Source: an uncultured bacterium
GTDB taxonomy: Bacteria; Omnitrophota; Omnitrophia; Omnitrophales; Aquincolibacteriaceae
DNA: 64,000 bases
NCBI GenBank assembly: GCA_964410905.1
Contig: CAYPIR010000003.1
Coordinates: forward strand, 79,986 to 143,985
Direction: 5' to 3'
In this document: positions 13,084-63,690 of the stretch, piece after piece
Layout of the letters: each line of letters opens with the position of its first letter
Numbering within the stretch: position 1 is the first letter of the stretch
Notes under the pieces: model-generated
Told to the model about the DNA's origin: nothing
The model's input: only the letters and a program-made list of their open reading frames with translations
Database searches by the model: none
Translations under genes and position numbers: made by a program

Positions 13084-13356
13084 ATGTCTATCGAAATACC
13101 AATGTCTGAGCGTTCCAAAAAATACGGCTATGTTTTTTGGGGGAAAAGAGCCGATTCCCAAATCGAATCTCTGTTGAAAGAAAAACAAAAAATCAGTGTG
13201 AAATTTAATGGCGTAGACTTAGGAGAAAAAAATATAGATTGGAAGCATCGCCGTATCTCTCTTGGGTGGACGCAAACAAGAAGTTTGCCGAATAAAAAAG
13301 CGTCATTTTTTTTAACCGTATCAAAGGATAATTGGCTAAACATAAAAACGGTATGA
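13084..13356 (+). CDS. hypothetical small protein (90 aa) overlapping the methyltransferase start
   Basis: An ORF only. It overlaps the start of the downstream methyltransferase gene by 25 nt. No recognisable motif. Confidence 0.3.
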   Translation: MSIEIPMSERSKKYGYVFWGKRADSQIESLLKEKQKISVKFNGVDLGEKNIDWKHRRISLGWTQTRSLPNKKASFFLTVSKDNWLNIKTV

Positions 13357-15551
13357 ACGTTACAGAAAATGTAGAAATAGCCTGCCCCAAATTATTCCCT
13401 ATTCCTGAAGAATCCATACACCGCATTGTTGATGAAGGGATGCTTCAGTATGAAGCGTCAGTGTCTGGACTCAAGGAAAGGTATCGCAGGGGTGAGACTT
13501 CACATACTGGGCAAGTATGGTGGGCAAGACGACCGCATTCCGCCATGCGGGCGTTGGTTTTTGCAGCGTTAAGCCAAAACGTTTCAAACGAAGCCGTGCA
13601 AATCATGGCAACCCTTGCTAACTGCGAAGCTCCCTCAAATGAAGTCTTAAAACGTGCTGAGGAAATAATCTCTTCTGGTGGTGTTCCCAAATTATTAGAC
13701 ATATTCGGTGGTGGAGGAACCATAGCTTCAGAAGCTGCAAGGATTGGGGCGAAAGCGTATTCGTGTGATGTGAATGAATTAGCCTGCTACATCCAAAGAA
13801 CGAATCTTACATATTCGCAACTTTTGAAGCAGGATGAGCTTTTCGCCTTAATCCAAAATTCTGGAGAGCGCATATTAAATAACTTAACTCAACTAACGAG
13901 AGATGTCTTCCCTCCAGCAAAGAGCATGATTGGAGGCGGGGGTAACCTGTTTTCCGAAGATGTGCAACCACTTGCATATCTATGGAGCTACGCTCGGACA
14001 TGTTCTAAATGTCAGTATAAGTTCTTGCTAATAAAGCGTCCGTGGCTTTCCAAAAAGAGAGAGCGAAAAACCGCATTTAGATTGAAGGATGATTTTGAAT
14101 CAAATGCGCAAACAGTGGAGATAATCGAAACCGATGATTCTTACGAGTTTATAAGTAATTGGAGCGGGCGAAATGGCATTGTCACATGTCCTAAATGCAA
14201 AACTATTCATGATGGCAATAAAATATCTGACTTGGAAGATTGCTTAATAGGAATAATTGTTAAAACGAAAAAGGGTAAATCTTTTTTAACGCCTGAGGAA
14301 ACCAGCTATCAATGCCCTTCATTGAATTACATGAAAGAAAAGGAAGCCAAGCTGCTAGAGAGTCTTGGGAAAAATCTGCCCGAAACAAAACTGCCTAAAT
14401 GGTCTGGCATCGTAAACCCTGCGTTGTATGGCATAGAAGAGCATAAAGATTTATTAAATCAGAGACAAAGAATCTTCCTTTTAGCGTTAATGAAGGAGAT
14501 TAAAGACGAATACAAAGTAATCGTTAAGAAACATGGCGTAGGGATAGCTAAAAGCGTTGTAGCTTTTCTCTCAGGTCTTGTTGACCAAGCTGTTGATTGG
14601 AATTGCAGATTATCAATGTGGATTTCTCAAAATGAACAAGTTGGACGAGCGCTGTGCGGACCAGGGCTTCCAATGTATTGGGACTATGTCGAAATAGACG
14701 GTGTTAGAAAAGGACCCGCAAACTTATGGGACAAGTTGGAACGAATTAGCAAAGGTGCGAAATCAATAGGTGGTTTTACGCACAAACCAGAGGTGAGTTT
14801 AGCGCCTGCTCAAAAACTTCCTTTTCCTAAAAACACCTTTGATGCAGTGGTCACTGACCCTCCCTACTATGACAACATCTATTACAGTATTTTGGCTGAT
14901 TGTATTTATCCATGGAAAAGAATGCTTTTGGAGGATATTGAGGTAGAACTTTTTTCTAACAGAAAAACCTCCAGTGAAAAAGAGCTTGTTGCCTCCACAT
15001 TTCGGAGCGGAACACCCGAAAAGGCTCACGGCGATTATTGCGTCGAACTTGCAAAGGCAATCAATGAAGCGGAAAGGGTCTTAAAGAAGAATGGAGTTTT
15101 TTGCTTTATATATAGCCATAGCTCTTCGAAAGGATGGGATGCGTTGATTCAGGCGTTCAGACCCAGCAATTTTTTCGTAACGAGCGTTCAGCCGTTAAGC
15201 ATAGAACGAAAAGAAAGACCAAGGGCAATGACGTCCCTTGCCGTCAATACATGTTTAACTTTTGTTGCGCATAAATCTAATGTCAGGAAAGGCGAAGTCA
15301 CCATAAAAGAGATTTTGAAAAACATTGAAAGCATCCGTGATAATTTCATGAAGTCTTTAACTTCATCGGGGTGGGAAGAAAGCGACGTAGCATTAGCTAT
15401 TTTTGCAAATGGCATTGGATTGTTAACGAATTTCAATCAAGTTAAGCGGGGCGAGGAAATTATTTCCAACGAAACTTGTATAGAGGCTATCGAAGCGAAA
15501 ATCCAAGAAAAGTTTCCTGAATTTAAGATACAAAAAAGAGGCTCGCTCTAG
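13332..15551 (+). CDS. DNA methyltransferase, Zn-ribbon-containing (DUF1156/COG1743-like, DPPY motif)
   Basis: 739 aa. The N-terminal ...HTGQVWWARRPHSAMRALVFAAL resembles the DUF1156 WWARRP motif. Motif I-like FGGGGTIASEAARIGAKAYSCDVN, CxxC...CxxC Zn-ribbons (CSKCQYKF...CPKCKTIHDG) and the catalytic DPPYYDNIYYS are present. Confidence 0.7.
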   Translation: MAKHKNGMNVTENVEIACPKLFPIPEESIHRIVDEGMLQYEASVSGLKERYRRGETSHTGQVWWARRPHSAMRALVFAALSQNVSNEAVQIMATLANCEAPSNEVLKRAEEIISSGGVPKLLDIFGGGGTIASEAARIGAKAYSCDVNELACYIQRTNLTYSQLLKQDELFALIQNSGERILNNLTQLTRDVFPPAKSMIGGGGNLFSEDVQPLAYLWSYARTCSKCQYKFLLIKRPWLSKKRERKTAFRLKDDFESNAQTVEIIETDDSYEFISNWSGRNGIVTCPKCKTIHDGNKISDLEDCLIGIIVKTKKGKSFLTPEETSYQCPSLNYMKEKEAKLLESLGKNLPETKLPKWSGIVNPALYGIEEHKDLLNQRQRIFLLALMKEIKDEYKVIVKKHGVGIAKSVVAFLSGLVDQAVDWNCRLSMWISQNEQVGRALCGPGLPMYWDYVEIDGVRKGPANLWDKLERISKGAKSIGGFTHKPEVSLAPAQKLPFPKNTFDAVVTDPPYYDNIYYSILADCIYPWKRMLLEDIEVELFSNRKTSSEKELVASTFRSGTPEKAHGDYCVELAKAINEAERVLKKNGVFCFIYSHSSSKGWDALIQAFRPSNFFVTSVQPLSIERKERPRAMTSLAVNTCLTFVAHKSNVRKGEVTIKEILKNIESIRDNFMKSLTSSGWEESDVALAIFANGIGLLTNFNQVKRGEEIISNETCIEAIEAKIQEKFPEFKIQKRGSL

Positions 15552-27533: not shown

Positions 27534-29519
27534 TTAAGACTTTTTTTCTATCTTTTTTATTTGGTCGCGATAGCGAGCGGCTTTGTCGAACTCAAGCGCG
27601 CGAGCGGCGCGCTCCATTTTGTTTTTCAAAAATGTTAGATATTTTTTTTCGTTATATTCCGCATTTGATTCATGCACCGCATCTTGAACAAATTCTTCCG
27701 CTTTTTTCCATTTCTCAATTCCAATTTTAATTTCCTTCTTTATTGTCGAAGGCGTAATTTTATTAACACGGTTATATTCAGCTTGAATTTTTCGTCGTCG
27801 AGCCGTCTCGTCAATCGCCCGTTTCATTGAATCTGTTATTTTATCGCCATACATTATTACTTTGCCATGGACATTACGCGCGGCGCGCCCAGCAATTTGA
27901 ATTAAAGAAACATCGCTTCTTAAAAAACCTTCTTTGTCCGCGTCTAGCACAACAACCAAAGAAACTTCGGGCAAATCCAAGCCCTCGCGCAGAAGGTTGA
28001 CGCCGATTATACAATCATATTTTTTGAGTCTAAAATCTTTTAAAATCTCCACACGCTCAAACGCGTCAAACTCCGAATGAATGTAATTTGTCGCGATGCC
28101 GACCTCTTTTAAATAACGGCTTAAATCTTCAGCCATTTTTTTTGTTAGAGTTGTTACTATTGTCCGCTCGCCGGATTTCGCGCGCTTGCGAATTTCACCT
28201 ATCAAATCATCAATTTGTCCATCTGTTGGGCGAACCTCGATTTCAGGGTCCATCAAACCTGTCGGTCGAACAAGCTGCTCAACCGGTGTTTTGTTTTTGC
28301 CAATCTCATACATTCCGGGTGTCGCGGAAACATACAGACATTGATTGAGTTTTTTCTCAAATTCAGGAAATTTTAGCGGTCGATTGTCCATAGCAGACGG
28401 AAGTCGAAAGCCATGCTCTACCAGAGTTTTTTTGCGTGCCGCGTCTCCGTTGAACATTCCTCGAATTTGCGGAATGCTTTGATGCGATTCATCTATGATC
28501 AATAAAAAATCTTTAGGGAAATAATCCAAAAGCGTGTAAGGCGTTGAACCTGCCTCGCGACCCGACAAATGTCTTGAGTAGTTTTCTACTCCTGAACAGT
28601 ATCCGACTTCACGCAACATCTCAAGATCATATTGCGTCCGCGATTCGAGCCGCTTTGCTTCAAGGTCCTTCCCCTCTCGTTCTAAAATTTTCACAGTTTC
28701 CGTTAATTCTTTTTCTATAGATTCAAACGCTGCATCAAGCCTTGCCTCCGGCGTAACAAAATGCTTCGCGGGATAAATTGCTAATTTTTCTGTTTCATTT
28801 GTCGGGGTTAACCTAACAGCATCTAGCGCCGTGATTCTGCTTATATATGCTTTGCCATCATCCACGAAACTGATTCGATAAGGCGTTTCGCCATAAGACG
28901 GCAACAAATCTATGCTGCCGCCACGGACGCGAAATGAGCCGCGTTTTAAATCCGTATCGACTCTCTCATACTGCAGCGAAATAAGATCGGAAATAAATCC
29001 ATCACGTGATTTACACTCTTTCTTTTTAATATTAATTAGCATTCCCTGCCAATCCTCAGGCGCGCCAAGCCCATAAATGCAAGAAACGCTAGAAACTATT
29101 ATGCAATCTTTACGCGACAGAAGAGAACTTGTGGCGGAAAATCTAAGCCGGTCAAGGTCGTCATTAATAGACGCGTCTTTTTCTATGTAAACATCGGTAT
29201 GCGGGATATACGCTTCGGGCTGATAGTAATCATAATAAGAAACAAAATATTCGACAGCGTTTTCAGGGAAAAATTCTTTTAACTCCGCGTAAAGCTGCGC
29301 GGCAAGAGTTTTATTATGAGAAATAACAAGAGTTGGTTTGCCAAGCCCGGCAATTACATTTGCCATCGTAAAAGTTTTGCCTGAACCGGTAACGCCCTTT
29401 AGGACTTGCTCTTTAGTTCCGGTTTGGAAACCTTCGATGAGTTTCTTTATCGCTTGAGGTTGATCGCCTTTAGGTTTCATCGATGAAACAAGGCGAAAGA
29501 CGCTCATAGTGCTAGTCAA
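27534..29519 (-). CDS. uvrB: excinuclease ABC subunit B
   Basis: 661 aa. ...GDQPQAI..L..G......Q.L.GVTGSGKTFTMANVI..., with helicase motifs and the C-terminal UvrB/UvrC interaction motif. Confidence 0.95.
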   Translation of the reverse strand: MTSTMSVFRLVSSMKPKGDQPQAIKKLIEGFQTGTKEQVLKGVTGSGKTFTMANVIAGLGKPTLVISHNKTLAAQLYAELKEFFPENAVEYFVSYYDYYQPEAYIPHTDVYIEKDASINDDLDRLRFSATSSLLSRKDCIIVSSVSCIYGLGAPEDWQGMLINIKKKECKSRDGFISDLISLQYERVDTDLKRGSFRVRGGSIDLLPSYGETPYRISFVDDGKAYISRITALDAVRLTPTNETEKLAIYPAKHFVTPEARLDAAFESIEKELTETVKILEREGKDLEAKRLESRTQYDLEMLREVGYCSGVENYSRHLSGREAGSTPYTLLDYFPKDFLLIIDESHQSIPQIRGMFNGDAARKKTLVEHGFRLPSAMDNRPLKFPEFEKKLNQCLYVSATPGMYEIGKNKTPVEQLVRPTGLMDPEIEVRPTDGQIDDLIGEIRKRAKSGERTIVTTLTKKMAEDLSRYLKEVGIATNYIHSEFDAFERVEILKDFRLKKYDCIIGVNLLREGLDLPEVSLVVVLDADKEGFLRSDVSLIQIAGRAARNVHGKVIMYGDKITDSMKRAIDETARRRKIQAEYNRVNKITPSTIKKEIKIGIEKWKKAEEFVQDAVHESNAEYNEKKYLTFLKNKMERAARALEFDKAARYRDQIKKIEKKS

Positions 29520-55996: not shown

Positions 55997-56878
55997 TTAA
56001 CAACTCTTTTTCTGTATGTATTTAAGCAGTTCTCTATACTCATCTAACGTCAAAGTTTCTCCGCGGAGCTTTATGTCAAATCCAAGCTCAATAAAAATCT
56101 TTTCCAATGACGGTCTGTCCAACAGCGTGATTTTGGACGACAACAAAAGAGATAAAAGAGTTTTGCGTCTTTGACTAAACGCTATTTTTACGAGTTTCAT
56201 CAACGCTTCCGTGTCTTCTTTTGTATCGTTTGGAAACTTCATCTTAAACTCATAAGATATGACTCGCGACATCACCTCCGGCTTTGGCAAAAAACAACTT
56301 TGAGAAACGTCAAATAAAGTTTTTATTTCCCCAAAATATTGACTGGTTACAGAAAGCCGTCCGTAGTCTTCGCTGCCCGCGCGCGCGGCTAGCCTCACCG
56401 CCACTTCCTTTTGCATCATCAAAATCGCCCGCGAAAAGTTTTCGCCGCTTTCTATAAGTTGAAAAAGTATCGGCGTGCTAATGTAATAAGGAAGATTGCT
56501 AACGACCTTTATTTTTTCACGCCGTGCCGTCAGTTTGTTTTTTATATTCCACTTCCTCATCGTTTCTGAAAGATTAATCTTAAGAATATCACTTTCAATA
56601 ATTTTAAATCGCTCAGGATATTCAGGAAGAATTTCATTAGTCAGTATTTCTACAAATTTAGCGTCAGTCTCTATAGCCAACAGATTCGCGCCGCGAGACA
56701 AAACCTCCCGCGTTACGGCTCCAAGCCCCGGTCCGATTTCAAGAACTTTGTCATCAGTTTTGAGCTCAAGGGCATCGACAATTTTTCTGATGGTGTTTGG
56801 GTCTATTAAAAGGTGCTGCCCCAAATGTCCGCGAACGCGAAGGTTGTATTTCCGAAGAAGTTCTATTTGCGAAAGCAT
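55997..56878 (-). CDS. rsmA: 16S rRNA (adenine1518/1519-N6)-dimethyltransferase
   Basis: 293 aa. LGQHLLIDPNTIRKIV...VLEIGPGLGAVT... is KsgA. Confidence 0.9.
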   Translation of the reverse strand: MLSQIELLRKYNLRVRGHLGQHLLIDPNTIRKIVDALELKTDDKVLEIGPGLGAVTREVLSRGANLLAIETDAKFVEILTNEILPEYPERFKIIESDILKINLSETMRKWNIKNKLTARREKIKVVSNLPYYISTPILFQLIESGENFSRAILMMQKEVAVRLAARAGSEDYGRLSVTSQYFGEIKTLFDVSQSCFLPKPEVMSRVISYEFKMKFPNDTKEDTEALMKLVKIAFSQRRKTLLSLLLSSKITLLDRPSLEKIFIELGFDIKLRGETLTLDEYRELLKYIQKKSC

Positions 56879-57909
56879 TGCTCAAGGACAGAACGCTTAG
56901 CAAATTTAAGCGCAGCGATCATTGAAGATGGGTTCGCCTTTCCGCTGTAGGCAATATCAAACGCCGTGCCGTGATCCGGAGACGTTCTGGTATACGGCAA
57001 TCCCAAAGTTACATTCACACCGTCTTCAAACGCCACGAGTTTGAATGGCGCTAGCGCTTGGTCATGATACATGCTGACAAGCGCGTCATACCGTCCATTA
57101 TACGCGGCATAAAAAGCAAGATCGGCGGCGATTGGCCCCGTCGCATTAACGCCTTTTTTTTGAGCTTTGCGAATCGCGGGTTTAATAATTTTATCCTCTT
57201 CTTTGCCGCATTCCCGCCCATGAGGATTTAAAGCGCAAACTCCAATCTTAGGCTCGGCAATTCCAAGTCCGACCCGCAGCGCGTTTTCCGCCATTAAAAT
57301 TTTTTCTAAAACAAGTGTCTCGCTTAAGAGTCCGCTGACTTTTTTAATGGGCGCGTGCATCGTAGCGAGTATCACATTAAGTTTAGAGCTCAAAAACATC
57401 ATCGCGTATTTTTTTGCTTTTGCCTTTTTGGCAAAAAATTCCGTGTGTCCAATAAAGTTTTTATCCACAAGCCGCATGGCTGTTTTGTTTATTGGCGCCG
57501 TAACAATCGCTCTTATTTTTTTCTGATTTGCGAGTTCGGCGGCCTGTTCAATAGCGAGCAACGCGAGTCTTCCGTTTTCTTTACAAAGCGTTGCCGGTCG
57601 AAAAACTCGTTTGTCAAAAAAACCTGGCGCGATATCTAAAAAATAACTTTCTCCGCCTTCCAGAGAAGTAACATCGGAAACCGAAACCGTTTTAAGATTT
57701 GCTTTTAAATCTGTTTTTTGTTTAAGCCATTCAAATACTCGTTGCGTGCCAATTACCAAATAGGCAATCTTGGAGGAAGGTTTTTCTTCGTTTATCGCTT
57801 TTATAAGAATTTCAGAGCCTATGCCGCCGGGGTCGCCCATGGTAATGGCGATAACAGGCGTTTGAGGCGAGGAAGGAGTTTGTTTTGAATGTTTCCTTGA
57901 AGATTTCAT
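56863..57909 (-). CDS. pdxA: 4-hydroxythreonine-4-phosphate dehydrogenase
   Basis: 348 aa. ...IAITMGDPGGIGSEI...GHTEF... Confidence 0.9.
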   Translation of the reverse strand: MKSSRKHSKQTPSSPQTPVIAITMGDPGGIGSEILIKAINEEKPSSKIAYLVIGTQRVFEWLKQKTDLKANLKTVSVSDVTSLEGGESYFLDIAPGFFDKRVFRPATLCKENGRLALLAIEQAAELANQKKIRAIVTAPINKTAMRLVDKNFIGHTEFFAKKAKAKKYAMMFLSSKLNVILATMHAPIKKVSGLLSETLVLEKILMAENALRVGLGIAEPKIGVCALNPHGRECGKEEDKIIKPAIRKAQKKGVNATGPIAADLAFYAAYNGRYDALVSMYHDQALAPFKLVAFEDGVNVTLGLPYTRTSPDHGTAFDIAYSGKANPSSMIAALKFAKRSVLEQCFRK

Positions 57910-57913
57910 AATT

Positions 57914-58885
57914 TTACTTAATTGATATGTAGGCGGATTTTTTTAAGTTTTCAACCCAAGCTTTAAATCTCTCATCGCTTTCTTTTTGATACAAGTAATT
58001 TAGAACTTGATCGCGCGCGTCATCAAACGAACGCGTTCTTTCTGCTTCTTTTTCTTCGACTCTAAAAATATGATACCCAATCGGAGACTCCACAATCGCC
58101 GTGGTTTTCCCAATCGGTGTATTAAAAATAACATTATCCATGGATTCAATCATCGAACCGTGTGAAACCCAATCGCCAAGTCCGCCGTTTTGCGCGCGAG
58201 CATCTTCCGAGGACTCTTTCGCGACCTCATCAAATTTATTATAGAGACGGATTTTTTGCTCAAGCAATTCTATTTTTTGTTTTGCTTTTTCGTCGGCAAT
58301 ACCTTTTTCTCGCGCCTCTTCACTTTTCTTAACAGTAACAGAACGGACTTTGATTCGTTCTTTAATTTTAAATTTTTCGGGATTGTTGTTGTAAAACGCT
58401 TCCACCTCGGCGGGAGAAATAACCACTTTCGCGCGTATTTCTCTGTCTTGCAATTGTCGAACAATAGCTTGCTTTTTAAGTCTTTCTTTGAGCGCCGAAC
58501 GCGTCAATCCCTCTTGAGCCAACATCGTATCCAGCTGCTCTGGAAATTCTAAGCGTGATAAAAAATCTCGAAATTCTTTTTCAACCTCTTCGTCTTTTAT
58601 CGTAAGTCCTTGTCTAACAGCCTCTTGATAAACGAGTTTGTCTTCTATCATTTGACTGAGAATTTTTTGGCGCGCGGCATTAACCTCTTTCATCAACGTT
58701 TCGCCGCTATACTCCCGCGCGTAATCGTCATAAATCGGACGCAGCACGCTGTCAAGTTCCGCCTGTGTAATCACATCATCGTTTATAACCGCGACAACGC
58801 GGTCTAAAAGCTCCTCTGTGGCAAACGCAGAAAAACTTGCTAAAGCAAGAACCAAGAAAAATATTATGGAAATTTGTTTTTTCAT
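57914..58885 (-). CDS. surA: periplasmic chaperone / peptidyl-prolyl isomerase, SurA-like
   Basis: 323 aa. Signal peptide, N-terminal SurA-like chaperone domain, and a PpiC-type PPIase domain (...IVESPIGYHIFRVEEKE...). Lies upstream of pdxA-ksgA as in the enterobacterial surA-pdxA-ksgA operon. Confidence 0.8.
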   Translation of the reverse strand: MKKQISIIFFLVLALASFSAFATEELLDRVVAVINDDVITQAELDSVLRPIYDDYAREYSGETLMKEVNAARQKILSQMIEDKLVYQEAVRQGLTIKDEEVEKEFRDFLSRLEFPEQLDTMLAQEGLTRSALKERLKKQAIVRQLQDREIRAKVVISPAEVEAFYNNNPEKFKIKERIKVRSVTVKKSEEAREKGIADEKAKQKIELLEQKIRLYNKFDEVAKESSEDARAQNGGLGDWVSHGSMIESMDNVIFNTPIGKTTAIVESPIGYHIFRVEEKEAERTRSFDDARDQVLNYLYQKESDERFKAWVENLKKSAYISIK

Positions 58886-59373
58886 AGGGGCGCATTATAT
58901 CTTAATTCATTACCCGCGCAATGTGTAAGAAAGGCATTTTTAATCTTCAACCTGTTTTTTTTAAAAATATAATCTATAAAATTATCTTTAGTAAGACTTA
59001 AAAACTCTATTTCCGGATAAGCATCCGCAAAAATTTTGGGCAGGCGCGCTTTTTTCGTTGAACTCCATTTAGATTCAAATGCTCTATATTACCCGTCTGT
59101 TTCGTGAATTAAATCTATTTCTTGCTGCTGTTTTGTTCGCCAAAAATATCTTTTTGCAAAATTTTTGAAATAGGCATCTTTCTTCAAAAGTTCCGCCATC
59201 ATAAAATTTTCTCATAACGTGCCAATGTCATTACGCAATGAGAGCGGATTAAATGCGGAAATCAGCGCGTTGCGGACGCCATTATCATAAGAGTTTGAAT
59301 TTAGGTTCAAAAATAGAGTTAAAGATTTAATAAAATTATCTACCAATTAAACTTGAGATGCTAATCTAGAGCC

Positions 59374-59439
59374 TTATTTTTTAAGAACTTCTTCGATTTC
59401 AATTTCTTGATTGCAACGCGGACATTTTATCTTTTGCAT
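59374..59439 (-). CDS. possible 21-aa CxxC mini-ORF (MQKIKCPRCNQEIEIEEVLKK)
   Basis: An ATG-to-TAA ORF read by eye immediately downstream of mfd. May be spurious. Confidence 0.15.
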   Translation of the reverse strand: MQKIKCPRCNQEIEIEEVLKK

Positions 59440-59443
59440 ATTT

Positions 59444-61342
59444 TCACCTGTTTTTTTTCTTACTCATTTCTTCCACTGCTTTTTTGAGCATTTTACAATA
59501 AAGATCAAACCCGACGGCCTGGATAAATCCGCTCTGTTCATGCCCAAGCAAATTTCCCGCGCCGCGTATCTCCAAGTCTTCCATCGCGATTTTAAACCCC
59601 GAACCAAGCTCGGTAAATTTCTCTATCGCCTGAAGTCTTTTTACCGCGTCTCGCGTCATTCCCCAATCTTTTGGTATCAAAAAATACGCATATGCTTGTC
59701 GTTTTTCCTTATATCTTCCGACTCGACCTCTCAATTGATACAAATCCGAAAGGCCAAAACAATCCGCCCTATCTACAATAAGAGTGTTCACATTTGGAAT
59801 GTCTACGCCGGACTCAACAATGTTGGTGGAAATAAGACAGTCGATTTCTCCTCGCAAAAATCGCTTCAGCGTTTTTTCAAGCTCACCGACATTCATCTGC
59901 CCATGCATGACGCTGAATCTAGCTTGCGGCATAAGAGTTTTCAAACGAATAAAAACCTTGTCTATTGATTGAACTCTGTTATGAATAAAATAAACTTGTC
60001 CGCCGCGGGAAATCTCCCGTTCTATTGCCTGCGTTATGATGTCTTCATGATACTCCATAACAAATGTTTCAATGGGCAGACGATTTTCCGGAGGAGTATC
60101 TATCACGGACATATCACGAACGCCAAGAAGCGCCATATGAAGAGTTCTTGGAATAGGAGTCGCAGTAAGCGTCAAAATGTCTACTTGCGTGCGGAGTTCT
60201 TTTAATTTTTCTTTATGTCGAACGCCGAATCTTTGTTCTTCATCGATAATCACAAGCCCAAGGTTTTTGAATGCGATGTCCTTTGATAAAAGTCTATGCG
60301 TTCCGACAACAATATCCATGGAACCATCAACAAGCGATTTCACAACCTGTTTTTGTTCTTTTGCGGTTTGAAACCGAGATAAAATTCCCGTCTTTATGGG
60401 AAAATTTTCAGTTCGCGATTTTATAAGCGCGTAATGCTGCTCGGCAAGAATAGTTGTCGGAACAAGAAACGCAACTTGCCTGCCTGCAGTTACGGTTTTA
60501 AATGCGGCGCGAACCGCGACTTCAGTTTTTCCATATCCGACATCTCCGCACAAAAGTCTGTCCATCGGTTTGGGCGATTCCATATCTTGCTTCACTTCTT
60601 CTATAGCGTGTTTTTGTCCCGCTGTTTCTTCAAATGGAAATTCGCTTTCAAATTCTTTTTGCCAAGCGGTATCCGCCGGAGACGAAAATCCTGACGAAAT
60701 ACTTCTTTCCGCTTGAATTCTAAGCATTTCGCCCGCGACTTTATGCAGAGCCACGCGTGTTCGCTCTTTTATTCTCTCCCACTCTTTTGTATTAAGCCTT
60801 GTAAGTTTTGGTCTAATGCCCGAACCGCCGATATATTTTTCGATAGGTTCTTTTATCGATAAATATAAAATTTCATTGTTGGCGTATTCAATTGCCATCG
60901 AACGAACTTTTTCGCCCTGCATTTGTATAGTTTTTGTGCCAAGAAACCTTCCGATACCATATTTTTGATGGACTACAAGATCGCCCCGCTTTAGTCCTTT
61001 GACAGTTTCTATCGGAACAAAATCTTCGTAGCGTTTTTCAAGGCGAGATAATTTCTTTTTAAAAAACTCCGTAACTTTTATAAGAAAAACCTCATCAAAA
61101 GTTGTCAGAGTTTCTCCTGTCGCGATAACAAAATCACGAATTTGAATAAGCTCATCGCCGCGAAACTGCAGTCTTATAGGTAGCCTATAAGTAATGGGAT
61201 AAATATCCACAATACCGCCGCGGACAGCAAACTCGCCGGGTCTTTCAATAATATTTGTTTTTTGATAATGAAGACTTTGAAGCAAGGCTTCGAGGGCTTC
61301 CAGAGGAATTATGTTATGCAGTTTAAGCCGTTTTATTTCCAT
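59444..61342 (-). CDS. mfd: transcription-repair coupling factor Mfd, short form (RNAP-interaction domain plus translocase only)
   Basis: 632 aa. ...GEFAVRGGIVDIYP...RLQFRGDELIQIRDF..., the RID-like LKRGDLVVHQKYGIGRFLG, helicase motifs (GDVGYGKTEVAVRAAF, DEEQRFG), TRG-region motifs (...RGRVGR...) and a C-terminal ...GFDLYCKMLKKAVEEM followed by a stop. An in-frame stop lies 14 codons upstream of the ATG. Confidence 0.85.
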   Translation of the reverse strand: MEIKRLKLHNIIPLEALEALLQSLHYQKTNIIERPGEFAVRGGIVDIYPITYRLPIRLQFRGDELIQIRDFVIATGETLTTFDEVFLIKVTEFFKKKLSRLEKRYEDFVPIETVKGLKRGDLVVHQKYGIGRFLGTKTIQMQGEKVRSMAIEYANNEILYLSIKEPIEKYIGGSGIRPKLTRLNTKEWERIKERTRVALHKVAGEMLRIQAERSISSGFSSPADTAWQKEFESEFPFEETAGQKHAIEEVKQDMESPKPMDRLLCGDVGYGKTEVAVRAAFKTVTAGRQVAFLVPTTILAEQHYALIKSRTENFPIKTGILSRFQTAKEQKQVVKSLVDGSMDIVVGTHRLLSKDIAFKNLGLVIIDEEQRFGVRHKEKLKELRTQVDILTLTATPIPRTLHMALLGVRDMSVIDTPPENRLPIETFVMEYHEDIITQAIEREISRGGQVYFIHNRVQSIDKVFIRLKTLMPQARFSVMHGQMNVGELEKTLKRFLRGEIDCLISTNIVESGVDIPNVNTLIVDRADCFGLSDLYQLRGRVGRYKEKRQAYAYFLIPKDWGMTRDAVKRLQAIEKFTELGSGFKIAMEDLEIRGAGNLLGHEQSGFIQAVGFDLYCKMLKKAVEEMSKKKNR

Positions 61343-61546
61343 TAAAATCTCTACTTTCGTGCTGCTGCAAAATATATAAAAATATCATTAGTAATGTAAC
61401 ATAAAAAAATCGGCATCGCTCATCAAACCTCCGCGTATTCTCGAACGTCGTTTGGTGAGCTATGCCAATTTTTTAGAATCAAAGTCATGTTATCCGTAAT
61501 TTATTAAATAATAACTTACATTAAACGCGCGAAATAGCAGCAGAGA

Positions 61547-61708
61547 TTATCCCTTCTTTTCTAAAATCGTTATTACTTTTTCTAATTGCTTCGATATTTT
61601 CCCGAGTAAATTTATTTGCTCTTCCATCATTCGCTCTTGCCGCGCCTGTAATTGTTTTGCTTCGTTCGCAATTTTTGTCATATCTCCTAATTTGCTAAAA
61701 TCAAACAT
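61547..61708 (-). CDS. possible 53-aa coiled-coil small protein (YbaB N-terminus-like)
   Basis: A hand-read ORF, MFDFSKLGDMTKIANEAKQLQARQERMMEEQINLLGKISKQLEKVITILEKKG. Resembles the N-terminal helix of YbaB/EbfC but is half the length. Below the track's size cut-off. Confidence 0.3.
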   Translation of the reverse strand: MFDFSKLGDMTKIANEAKQLQARQERMMEEQINLLGKISKQLEKVITILEKKG

Positions 61709-61723
61709 CGTTTTCTCCTAAAT

Positions 61724-62023
61724 TTATTTGTTATTACGTTTTAAAAACCAATCGTGCAATTTTTGTGTCTGATCGCCTTGTATTTCTATCGTCCCATTTT
61801 TTACCGCCCCTCCGGCGCCGCAAAGAGCCTTCCATTCGCGAGCCATATCGCTGAGCCGCTCACTCCCATAAGTATGCAAACCCAAAACCACCGTTACAAA
61901 TTTCCCTGCTCTTTTTTCCAAACGGATTACGGGCTTGGGACTGTTCGGATTTTCTTTTTTTACTGGCAAGACAGGCTCGTCCGAACTAAGCGACCAACCG
62001 TTTCCGCTCGTAAGTTTTGCCAT
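61724..62023 (-). CDS. yciH: translation initiation factor SUI1/YciH family protein
   Basis: 99 aa. ...GKFVTVVLGL......LSDMAREWKALCGAGGAVKNGTIEIQGDQ... is the SUI1 fold signature. Confidence 0.8.
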   Translation of the reverse strand: MAKLTSGNGWSLSSDEPVLPVKKENPNSPKPVIRLEKRAGKFVTVVLGLHTYGSERLSDMAREWKALCGAGGAVKNGTIEIQGDQTQKLHDWFLKRNNK

Positions 62024-62034
62024 TTCATATTCCT

Positions 62035-63690
62035 TTATTTTTGTTTTGCGCGCGCGAGCATTTCCTCGGCATGCAACGTAGAAATTTCGCTAGTGTCCTG
62101 CCCGCTCATCATTTGCGCTAATTCGTCAATTTTTTCTTGCCCTTCCAAAATCTCATAATAAACTTTTGTTTTCCCCTTCACGACAGATTTTGTTACCTTA
62201 AAATGCCTGTCAGCAAACGAGGCGATTTGCGGCAAATGCGTTACAAGCAGCACCTGCCTTTCCTCAGAAATACTTTTTAATTTTTCTCCCGTCACGCGAC
62301 CAAGCCTCCCGCCAATGTTCGCGTCAATTTCGTCAAATATCAAAACAGACACGGGATCCGTTTGAATAAGCGCTTTTTTTATAGCAAGCATTATCCGCGA
62401 AGCCTCGCCTCCAGAAATGCTTTTTTCTATAGCAAGCATCGGCTCCCCGGGATTCATTCTCGCAAAAAACTCAACGCCGTCCGCGCCATTTTCTGAAAAA
62501 TCCGTGTTCGTTATCTTGATTTTTATTTCTGCTTTCGCGATTTGCAAATCTTTTAATTCTTTTTCTATATCGTTTTCGAGGCGCGCCGCGCTCTCTTTGC
62601 GTTTTGCCGTAAATTTTTCCGCCGTTCTTTTCAGTTCTTTTTTCTTATTTTCTATTTCTTCCCCCAAATCACTTTTTGCCATGTCCAGGTCTATCAATTG
62701 CTCATATCGCTTTTTAGCGTCCGCGTAAAATTCTTTTACTTTTTCAAGAGTCGTGCCATATTTCTTTTTCAAATGCTCCAGCAAGTCCTTCTTTTTTTCT
62801 AATTCCGCGAACCGTTCGGGATCAAATGTCAATTTTTCACGATAGTCTTTTAATTTTAAAATTATTTCCTGCAAGGAATATTGAATTTGTTCGCTTTCGC
62901 TTTGAATTTCATTTATTGATTCATCAAATTTTGCCAAGCCTTTCAGATTTTTAATCGCGTGAGACAAAAACAAATCCGCGTTTTGTTCGTTTTCATCTAA
63001 TGCGCCCAGCGCTCCAGCGGTGAGTTCTGAGAGTTTTTCCGAATTTGCCAATCTAATTCTTTCCGTTTCCATTTCTATTTCATCCACTTTCAAAATATCA
63101 GCGTTTTCGATTTCGTCTATTTGATATTTCAAAAGATCTATTTCTCGTTCCCTGCTCGCTTCCATTTCGTTGAGTTCTTTTTGTGATTTTAAGAGAACCT
63201 CGTATTGACTAAAAAGTTTTGGGTATTCAGTTTTCGTTATATCTATTTGGGCAAATCGATCCAAAATGCCTAGGTGCGCGTTCGCTTGAAAAAGCCTCTG
63301 ATGGTCGTGCTGTCCGTGAATATCGATAAGCCCCATTCCTATTTCTTTCAATTGAGAAACAGCCGCCAATCTGGAATTAACCCAAGCGCGCGATTTCCCA
63401 TCGGCGTATTCTCGTCGCAAAATAAGCGTGAAATCGTCTTGCAAATAATTTTCAAAGAGTGGATTTTCCGCGGTTTCTTCAGAAAGTTCAAACGCGGCCT
63501 CTGCTGCTATTTTTTTATCCGCGCTATCTTTATCTATTTCCAATCTCGCCCCAAGGACAAATCTAATCGCGTCAATAAGAATTGATTTCCCTGCGCCCGT
63601 TTCGCCGGTAAGGACATTGAGATTGTCAGAAAAGTTTAGAGTGAGGTCGTCTATAAGCGCGAAGTTTTTGATATGGAGTTGAGTAAGCAT
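62035..63690 (-). CDS. recN: DNA repair protein RecN
   Basis: 551 aa. MLTQLHIKNFALIDDLTLNFSDNLNVLTGETGAGKSILIDAI..., a long coiled-coil region, and the C-terminal ABC signature. Confidence 0.9.
   Translation of the reverse strand: MLTQLHIKNFALIDDLTLNFSDNLNVLTGETGAGKSILIDAIRFVLGARLEIDKDSADKKIAAEAAFELSEETAENPLFENYLQDDFTLILRREYADGKSRAWVNSRLAAVSQLKEIGMGLIDIHGQHDHQRLFQANAHLGILDRFAQIDITKTEYPKLFSQYEVLLKSQKELNEMEASREREIDLLKYQIDEIENADILKVDEIEMETERIRLANSEKLSELTAGALGALDENEQNADLFLSHAIKNLKGLAKFDESINEIQSESEQIQYSLQEIILKLKDYREKLTFDPERFAELEKKKDLLEHLKKKYGTTLEKVKEFYADAKKRYEQLIDLDMAKSDLGEEIENKKKELKRTAEKFTAKRKESAARLENDIEKELKDLQIAKAEIKIKITNTDFSENGADGVEFFARMNPGEPMLAIEKSISGGEASRIMLAIKKALIQTDPVSVLIFDEIDANIGGRLGRVTGEKLKSISEERQVLLVTHLPQIASFADRHFKVTKSVVKGKTKVYYEILEGQEKIDELAQMMSGQDTSEISTLHAEEMLARAKQK

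Follow-up and report, generated by a model that had tools for sequence, protein, structure and literature searches.

Studies of how the transcription-repair coupling factor Mfd is regulated have centred on the clamp that the E. coli protein forms between its domain D2, which binds UvrA (PDB 4DFC; Manelyte 2010, PMC3025350), and its C-terminal domain D7. Removal of D7 from E. coli Mfd raises the ATPase activity and allows translocation independent of RNA polymerase (RNAP), with RNAP displacement still depending on the contact of the RNA-polymerase interaction domain (RID) with the beta subunit (Smith 2007, PMC1874598), and the protein so shortened binds UvrA constitutively and retains strand-specific repair both in vitro and in vivo (PMC3025350). 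Coupling in E. coli is abolished by deleting the UvrB-homology module, or by alanine at R165, R181, F185 of D2 (PMC3025350), and a second regulatory node lies at the hook-relay interface, where W550 meets I970 (PMC3488230). As for naturally unusual forms, the Mfds of Buchnera aphidicola, Wigglesworthia glossinidia and chloroplasts are devoid of the UvrB-homology module, including D2, and keep D7, with UvrA, UvrB and UvrC absent (PMC3488230, PMC13453472); a permanently activated Mfd has been deemed unlikely in cells on the ground that D7 is retained in every known atypical Mfd (PMC3488230). Thermus Mfd, finally, is naturally not autoinhibited and translocates on DNA without RNAP, and is used in a 2026 paper to argue against clamp autoinhibition being universal (PMC13453472). 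The present analysis deals with a short mfd gene on the minus strand of a 64-kb stretch of contig CAYPIR010000003.1 from an uncultured bacterium of the Omnitrophota (the window; findings given for the window cover those 64,000 nt). The gene lies at 59444..61342, and we believe, with a probability of about 60%, that its product is a streamlined transcription-repair coupling factor particular to its lineage, a "mini-Mfd" of a Candidatus Omnitrophota clade, which would operate without the clamp and would still recruit UvrA. No description of a short Mfd architecture devoid of D7, or of any Mfd from Omnitrophota or Omnitrophica, was found in the searchable literature.

The protein is a member of the Mfd family, scoring 856.1 bits with the mfd equivalog model TIGR00580.2 (cut-off 800). 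It stays below the cut-off of NF007966, a model of full-length enterobacterial Mfd (617 vs 1329), as expected since it is of half the length, and it does not belong to RecG, whose best model gives 404 bits against a cut-off of 718, the N-terminus being made up of D2 and the RID. The best matches among solved structures are to mycobacterial, E. coli and Thermus Mfd (E = 1e-173 to 1e-149), always in two stretches, one in D2 and one across D4-D6. In BLASTP alignments with E. coli Mfd (reference sequence from NC_000913), residues 15-99 pair with residues 139-223, that is with D2, at 32% identity, and residues 111-626 pair with residues 471-986, that is with D4-D6 and the hook helices, at 48% identity. 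The Pfam set consists of UvrB_inter, CarD_TRCF_RID, DEAD and Helicase_C, and no TRCF/D7 domain is detected in the 632 residues. Judged from these sequence matches, the architecture is D2, a 24-residue linker, D4, D5, and D6 with the TRG motif and hook helices, and D1a, D1b, D3 and D7 are absent from the protein. The original prediction that the RNAP-interaction domain and the RecG-like motor are kept is therefore upheld by both Pfam and the E. coli alignment.

Reading along the gene, its extent, its 632 codons plus stop codon and its ATG start agree with what had been proposed (ORF listing, TIGR00580 and structure matches), and an in-frame stop indeed lies exactly 14 codons upstream of the ATG. 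D2 (UvrB_inter, the UvrA-binding domain) takes up residues 4-91 (61070..61333, minus) according to Pfam, BLASTP, a D2 profile hidden Markov model (HMM) and the confidence of the structural model discussed below; PF17757 covers residues 6-93 with 61 bits (cut-off 22.9), and the profile HMM gives E = 1e-20. The N-terminus had originally been taken for the end of a D1b-like region. This is incorrect: GEFAVRGGIVDIYP is the core of D2, aligning with GEYATRGALLDLFP of E. coli Mfd and with GSFRVRGGSIDLLP of the window's own UvrB, and residues 6-93 constitute a complete UvrB_inter domain. The first D2 strand marks the start of the protein, and a complete UvrB-homology module (D1a-D2-D1b) followed by D3 is not found. 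In other words, the proposed loss of the UvrB-homology module is right for D1a and D1b, which are gone, and wrong for the UvrA-binding D2, which is retained. The loss of D3 is an additional one that had gone unmentioned. In place of D1b and D3, residues 92-115 (60998..61069, minus) form a short helix and a flexible D2-RID linker, after which D4, the RID, extends over residues 116-175 (60818..60997, minus; Pfam and BLASTP), with PF02559 (CarD_TRCF_RID) on residues 117-164 at 43 bits (cut-off 23), in a region aligned with E. coli Mfd from residue 471 onward. The relay-helix region follows (residues 176-235, 60638..60817, minus; a long helix at 187-215 in the model), and then the two lobes of the SF2 translocase, D5 and D6 (TD1 and TD2; residues 236-560, 59663..60637, minus), where Pfam places DEAD on residues 241-402 and Helicase_C on residues 438-544; the translocase has intact ATPase motifs and a TRG motif. 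The TRG motif and hook helices, residues 561-626 (59465..59662, minus), are the most conserved segment. What remains is a basic tail of six residues and the stop codon (59444..59464, minus), where a full-length Mfd would go on into D7. Namely, the C-terminus lies 6 residues past GFDLYCKMLKKAVEEM, which aligns with residues 971-986 of E. coli Mfd (BLASTP), and whereas the E. coli protein runs 162 residues further as D7, here there is no C-terminal D7 that could form a D2-D7 clamp, exactly as had been claimed.

Could the gene simply be a fragment of a full-length mfd, due to misassembly, a frameshift or recent decay? Its length, about half that of canonical Mfd, and the remnant of a DUF4143 gene downstream would fit such a view. 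That said, the identical 632-aa protein is present on contigs assembled independently from two sequencing runs, the catalytic residues are all invariant, the flanks contain no Mfd-derived sequence, and the downstream remnant comes from an unrelated family. What is more, in a search of 5.8 billion proteins none of the best 120 clusters, which match the query at 61-77% identity, falls outside 617-683 aa; they share its Pfam set and have no D7 domain either, meaning that at least 120 homologous clusters share both length and ends; the check on Mfd length in relatives that had been suggested thus shows the short length to be common to all of these clusters. In an alignment of 63 homologues drawn from them, all but one begin no more than about 10 residues from the first D2 strand (the exception has a longer predicted N-terminus), and in the 61 of the 63 with a GFDLY motif the C-terminus lies about 3-30 residues past the hook helices, the tails being short, variable and of low complexity. 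With the same protein in two independent assemblies and both ends conserved across the 63 homologues, frameshift and assembly error are ruled out, the gene is genuinely shortened as originally proposed, and the chance that we are dealing with an artefact or a pseudogene of any kind is, in our view, negligible.

How far does this form extend? The members of the best 120 clusters whose source is named come almost all from Candidatus Omnitrophota or Omnitrophica, and databases already label these proteins "transcription-repair coupling factor". A HMMER scan of 1.84 billion cluster representatives (50% identity) returned 2 short proteins among the best 150 clusters, the remaining ones being 929-1393 aa long; the two shortest of the latter, of 929 and 1006 aa, were considered as a second class without D7 and rejected, as both are annotated "partial". 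Among species-representative genomes the short form occurs in 11 loci, with identity down to 51%, which belong to metagenome-assembled genomes (MAGs) of Omnitrophota, to several unclassified MAGs and to one labelled Planctomycetia; in the other species-representative matches D2 and the RID are about 700 bp apart, and these are therefore full-length. The Planctomycetia case is a MAG named "uncultured Planctomycetia bacterium" (CAYJWF010000017.1, 2911..4872), whose short Mfd, at 51% identity, is encoded by an ORF of about 650 aa with a surA-like gene directly after it. This leaves two readings, an imprecise label or a short form that reaches beyond Omnitrophota. Finally, in a neighbour-joining tree of the D4-D6 core with 163 sequences, the 14 sampled short forms make up an exclusive clade, which is consistent with a single origin.

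One may also ask if the functions of D1a, D1b and D3, of D7, or of both, come in trans from genes at other sites of the genome, given that the sequence covered amounts to 64 kb of this genome plus 3 kb flanks of the related loci. To begin with the window itself, tblastn searches with D1a, D1b, D3 and D7 of E. coli Mfd gave matches at chance level only across the 64 kb. We also built profile HMMs for each domain from 60 full-length Mfds and searched them against six-frame translations of the window and of 13 related loci. Here the D7 profile found nothing, and the D1a, D1b and D3 profiles matched only the genuine uvrB gene, which they do because these domains are homologues of UvrB; the D2 profile, for its part, matched every short Mfd in the searched loci (E = 1e-19 to 5e-26). 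The original statement that no N- or C-terminal Mfd fragments are encoded nearby has thus withstood both kinds of search, which likewise exclude that the flanks conceal the missing domains. The surA start lies 0-150 bp from the mfd stop in most of the related loci, and therefore there is no space for D7 there. Both gene ends are, moreover, stable over more than 60 diverged homologues, with surA as a tightly conserved neighbour, and the lost domains are poorly conserved even among full-length Mfds. We know of no stand-alone D7 family. Taken together, a split Mfd appears highly improbable.

If the missing parts are gone, the question becomes how strongly the remaining ones are constrained, and here we counted invariant positions over the 63 aligned homologues and compared mean pairwise identities within the short clade with those among the 60 full-length Mfds. 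The motor has kept its Walker A residues K272 and T273 (K634 and T635 in E. coli), D367 and E368 of the DExx motif, DEEQ (D729 and E730), and R569, R593 and Q603 of the TRG motif (R929, R953 and Q963), all of them invariant in 63/63, as are W188 of the relay helix (W550) and the D2 arginines R41 and R57 (R165 and R181). V610, the counterpart of I970 (the hook residue that pairs with W550), reaches a conservation of at least 90%, and the position of L499 in the RID is always hydrophobic (I, L or F). By domain, the mean identity in the short clade versus full-length Mfds is 0.56 vs 0.40 for D2, 0.69 vs 0.45 for the RID, 0.76 vs 0.66 for TD1, 0.70 vs 0.55 for TD2 and 0.84 vs 0.61 for the TRG motif with the hook helices; the linker of residues 92-115 stands at 0.41 in the short clade. 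Taking the ratio of D2 to TD1 identity, one obtains 0.74 for the short clade (0.56 vs 0.76) and 0.61 for full-length Mfds (0.40 vs 0.66), so that, relative to the motor, D2 is constrained no less strongly than in canonical Mfds. The domains absent from the short clade have identities among full-length Mfds of 0.23 (D1a), 0.17 (D1b), 0.22 (D3) and 0.25 (D7): the four domains that were shed are exactly the four least conserved ones in full-length Mfds (0.17-0.25).

An AlphaFold2 model built from the 63 homologues has a mean predicted local distance difference test score (pLDDT) of 77. In this model D2 folds well as a domain of its own (pLDDT 81-91 for the greater part), residues 97-113 form a tether of low confidence (pLDDT < 50), and the RID and both motor lobes are confident; a Foldseek search with the model ranks Mfd structures first. 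The spacer between D2 and the RID measures 24 residues in 62 of the 63 homologues. Despite the predicted disorder, the linker of residues 92-115 has conserved positions, namely K97, E109 and a consensus F-E-P motif, and may be more than a passive tether. It bears a weak likeness, at the level of pattern and without significance (BLAST E of at least 0.2, HMM E of at least 0.08), to the stretch of full-length Mfds made up of the D3 end and the D3-D4 linker.

The original prediction held that a protein of this kind would be unable to recruit UvrA. This is probably wrong: D2 is present, it is predicted to fold separately, the equivalents of R165 and R181 are invariant, and the window encodes UvrB. 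In particular, a full-length uvrB gene of 661 aa lies at 27534..29519 on the minus strand, with Pfam ResIII, UvrB_inter, Helicase_C, UvrB and UVR domains, and UvrB loading requires UvrA, from which we infer a working UvrABC pathway. In the D2 of the short Mfd, the Phe equivalent to E. coli F184, just before the F185 position, is kept. Domain 2 of this organism's UvrB likewise has F at the position of Mfd F184, followed by V at that of F185, while the short Mfd has F followed by a non-aromatic residue. This common pattern may represent a co-adaptation of UvrB and the short Mfd to one UvrA surface.

Several points nevertheless weigh against UvrA recruitment by a coupling factor that has dispensed with the clamp. 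The E. coli F185 equivalent is not conserved, being E, R or Q, and this organism's UvrB is also without an aromatic residue at that position (V). R165 and R181 also touch D7 in E. coli Mfd, and so their conservation does not point to UvrA binding alone. The AlphaFold2 model is uninformative on a docking of D2 onto another domain, and the presence of UvrA is deduced from that of uvrB, with only 64 kb of the genome covered. In addition, cryo-EM has shown that the D1-D3 module helps to load E. coli Mfd onto the elongation complex; the short protein has no such module, and therefore its loading must differ from that of E. coli Mfd. Lastly, there is the view of Smith et al. (2012) that a permanently activated Mfd is unlikely to occur in a cell (PMC3488230).

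Alternatively, the protein may act as an RNAP-displacement or transcription-termination factor only, removing polymerases that are stalled or roadblocked but uncoupled from excision repair, with D2 kept for stability, for another partner or for autoinhibitory docking on the motor. Repair-independent roles of Mfd are found in many bacteria (PMC13453472), the atypical Mfds of Buchnera, Wigglesworthia and chloroplasts function with no coupling to repair (PMC3488230, PMC13453472), and, besides the non-conserved F185 position, the rest of the UvrB-homology module, D1a and D1b, is gone here. However, the known repair-independent Mfds are without D2 and without UvrABC, and have D7, whereas the present protein has D2 and no D7, and occurs together with uvrB. 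What is more, D2 is clearly constrained, with the equivalents of R165 and R181 invariant, and UvrA is the sole documented external partner of D2 (PMC3025350). For these reasons, we regard a function in termination alone as unlikely, albeit deserving of some weight, and favour a coupling factor that still recruits UvrA.

How could such a coupling factor arise and work? It would have originated by three deletions in an ancestral full-length mfd: one at the 5' end removing D1a, an internal one removing D1b-D3, and one at the 3' end removing D7. The modules left would be D2, D4 for the interaction with the RNAP beta subunit, the ATP-driven double-stranded-DNA translocase of D5 and D6 with its TRG motif, and the hook helices. 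By homology, a stalled elongation complex would be tethered via the RID, upon which the motor, whose catalytic residues are intact, would move on the upstream DNA and push RNAP forward and off. D2, held on a largely disordered tether of 24 residues and unmasked without D7, would then bind and hand over the site to UvrA2B. With D7 the D2-D7 autoinhibitory clamp is lost as well, and, to go by E. coli Mfd lacking D7 and by Thermus Mfd, there would be no clamp autoinhibition, so that constitutive activity is plausible. That said, the second known regulatory node, the hook-relay interface (W550/I970 in E. coli), is conserved as W188/V610. Residual control, if there is any, could come from the conserved hook-relay-TRG network, from the requirement for RID-RNAP contact, or from the expression level. 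Both ATP-dependent RNAP displacement and UvrA-mediated template-strand repair are, in this sense, what the conserved domains and the behaviour of E. coli Mfd lacking D7 would lead one to expect.

The gene sits within a conserved string on the minus strand (55997..63690), whose order is recN (62035..63690), SUI1/YciH (61724..62023), a small ORF of 53 aa, coiled-coil-like and without a Pfam match (61547..61708), mfd, surA (57914..58885), pdxA (56863..57909) and rsmA/ksgA (55997..56878). The order surA-pdxA-rsmA is that of the E. coli operon. The spacer 5' of mfd is 204 bp long. On its 3' side there is a spacer of 558 bp (58886..59443), specific to this genome; since only 0-150 bp separate mfd from surA in most related loci, it looks like the remnant of a genome-specific insertion. 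The roughly 490 bp of downstream DNA that had been described as non-coding hold a decayed piece of a DUF4143 gene, from its C-terminal part (PF13635, E = 2.3e-9, with an internal stop read through; ~59062..59211, minus). The 21-aa CxxC mini-ORF noted earlier, MQKIKCPRCNQEIEIEEVLKK, is indeed present in this spacer (59374..59439, minus strand); nothing equivalent occurs in the related loci, where the spacer is missing, and for this reason the mini-ORF is probably not a gene. An Rfam scan detected no known RNA in the 558-bp downstream and 204-bp upstream spacers (two tRNAs lie elsewhere in the window), and a scan for promoters and terminators around mfd gave counts no higher than the shuffled expectation. 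Elsewhere in the window, and unrelated to mfd, a 739-aa ORF at 13332..15551 on the plus strand has weak matches to N6_N4 DNA methylase and Methyltransf_11.

The broader claim, that a whole lineage carries out transcription-coupled repair with a 630-residue Mfd made of D2, the RID and the motor only, we consider to be about evenly balanced. If true, it would mean that the D2-D7 clamp, the pseudo-ATPase fold of D1a/D1b and D3 are all dispensable in vivo, that a permanently exposed UvrA-binding surface is harmless, and that the DNA-wrapping loading route of E. coli Mfd can be bypassed. In that case, the protein would represent a minimal coupling factor found in nature and, being small, an attractive object for structural and single-molecule studies. 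The Omnitrophota form stands as a natural counter-example to the clamp being universal among Mfds, with D7 deleted outright, D2 kept and conserved, and UvrB encoded. It indicates that evolution treats D2, the RID, the motor and the hook as indispensable, and these are the parts needed for transcription-coupled repair in E. coli. A protein of half the size lends itself to asking if an exposed D2 sequesters UvrA, how loading proceeds without D1-D3, and what restrains the motor without a clamp. All of this amounts to a refinement of a well-known system and not to a new one: the architecture is new within the known Mfd family.

How does the short Mfd, then, stand beside the systems described so far? 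With canonical E. coli Mfd (1148 aa; PDB 2EYQ, 6X26) it shares D2, the RID, the relay helix, TD1, TD2, the TRG motif and the hook helices, and every catalytic and TRG residue that was checked is conserved; it differs in having no D1a, D1b, D3 and D7, in having D2 tied to the RID by a 24-residue tether, and in having neither the D2-D7 clamp nor the D1-D3 module that wraps DNA during loading. With RecG it shares a homologous SF2 motor with a TRG motif, as RecG models score about 400 bits and PDB 1GM5 is among the structure matches, but it has the RID and D2 where RecG has the wedge domain. The Mfds of Buchnera, Wigglesworthia and chloroplasts are likewise naturally shortened, with a reduced N-terminal region; however, the Omnitrophota form is their reverse, with D2 kept, D7 lost and uvrB present, and does not belong in their class. 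Thermus thermophilus Mfd (978 aa; PDB 6M6A, 13JQ; PMC13453472) resembles it as a natural Mfd without effective D2-D7 autoinhibition, which for the short Mfd would follow from its domain content, but has D1a, D2, D1b, D3 and D7 all present, its clamp being dynamic and not deleted. In function it comes nearest to the engineered E. coli Mfd lacking D7, in which D2 is exposed: this has the same end point past the hook helices, and while that construct keeps D1a, D1b and D3, the Omnitrophota form is natural, evolutionarily stable and does without them.

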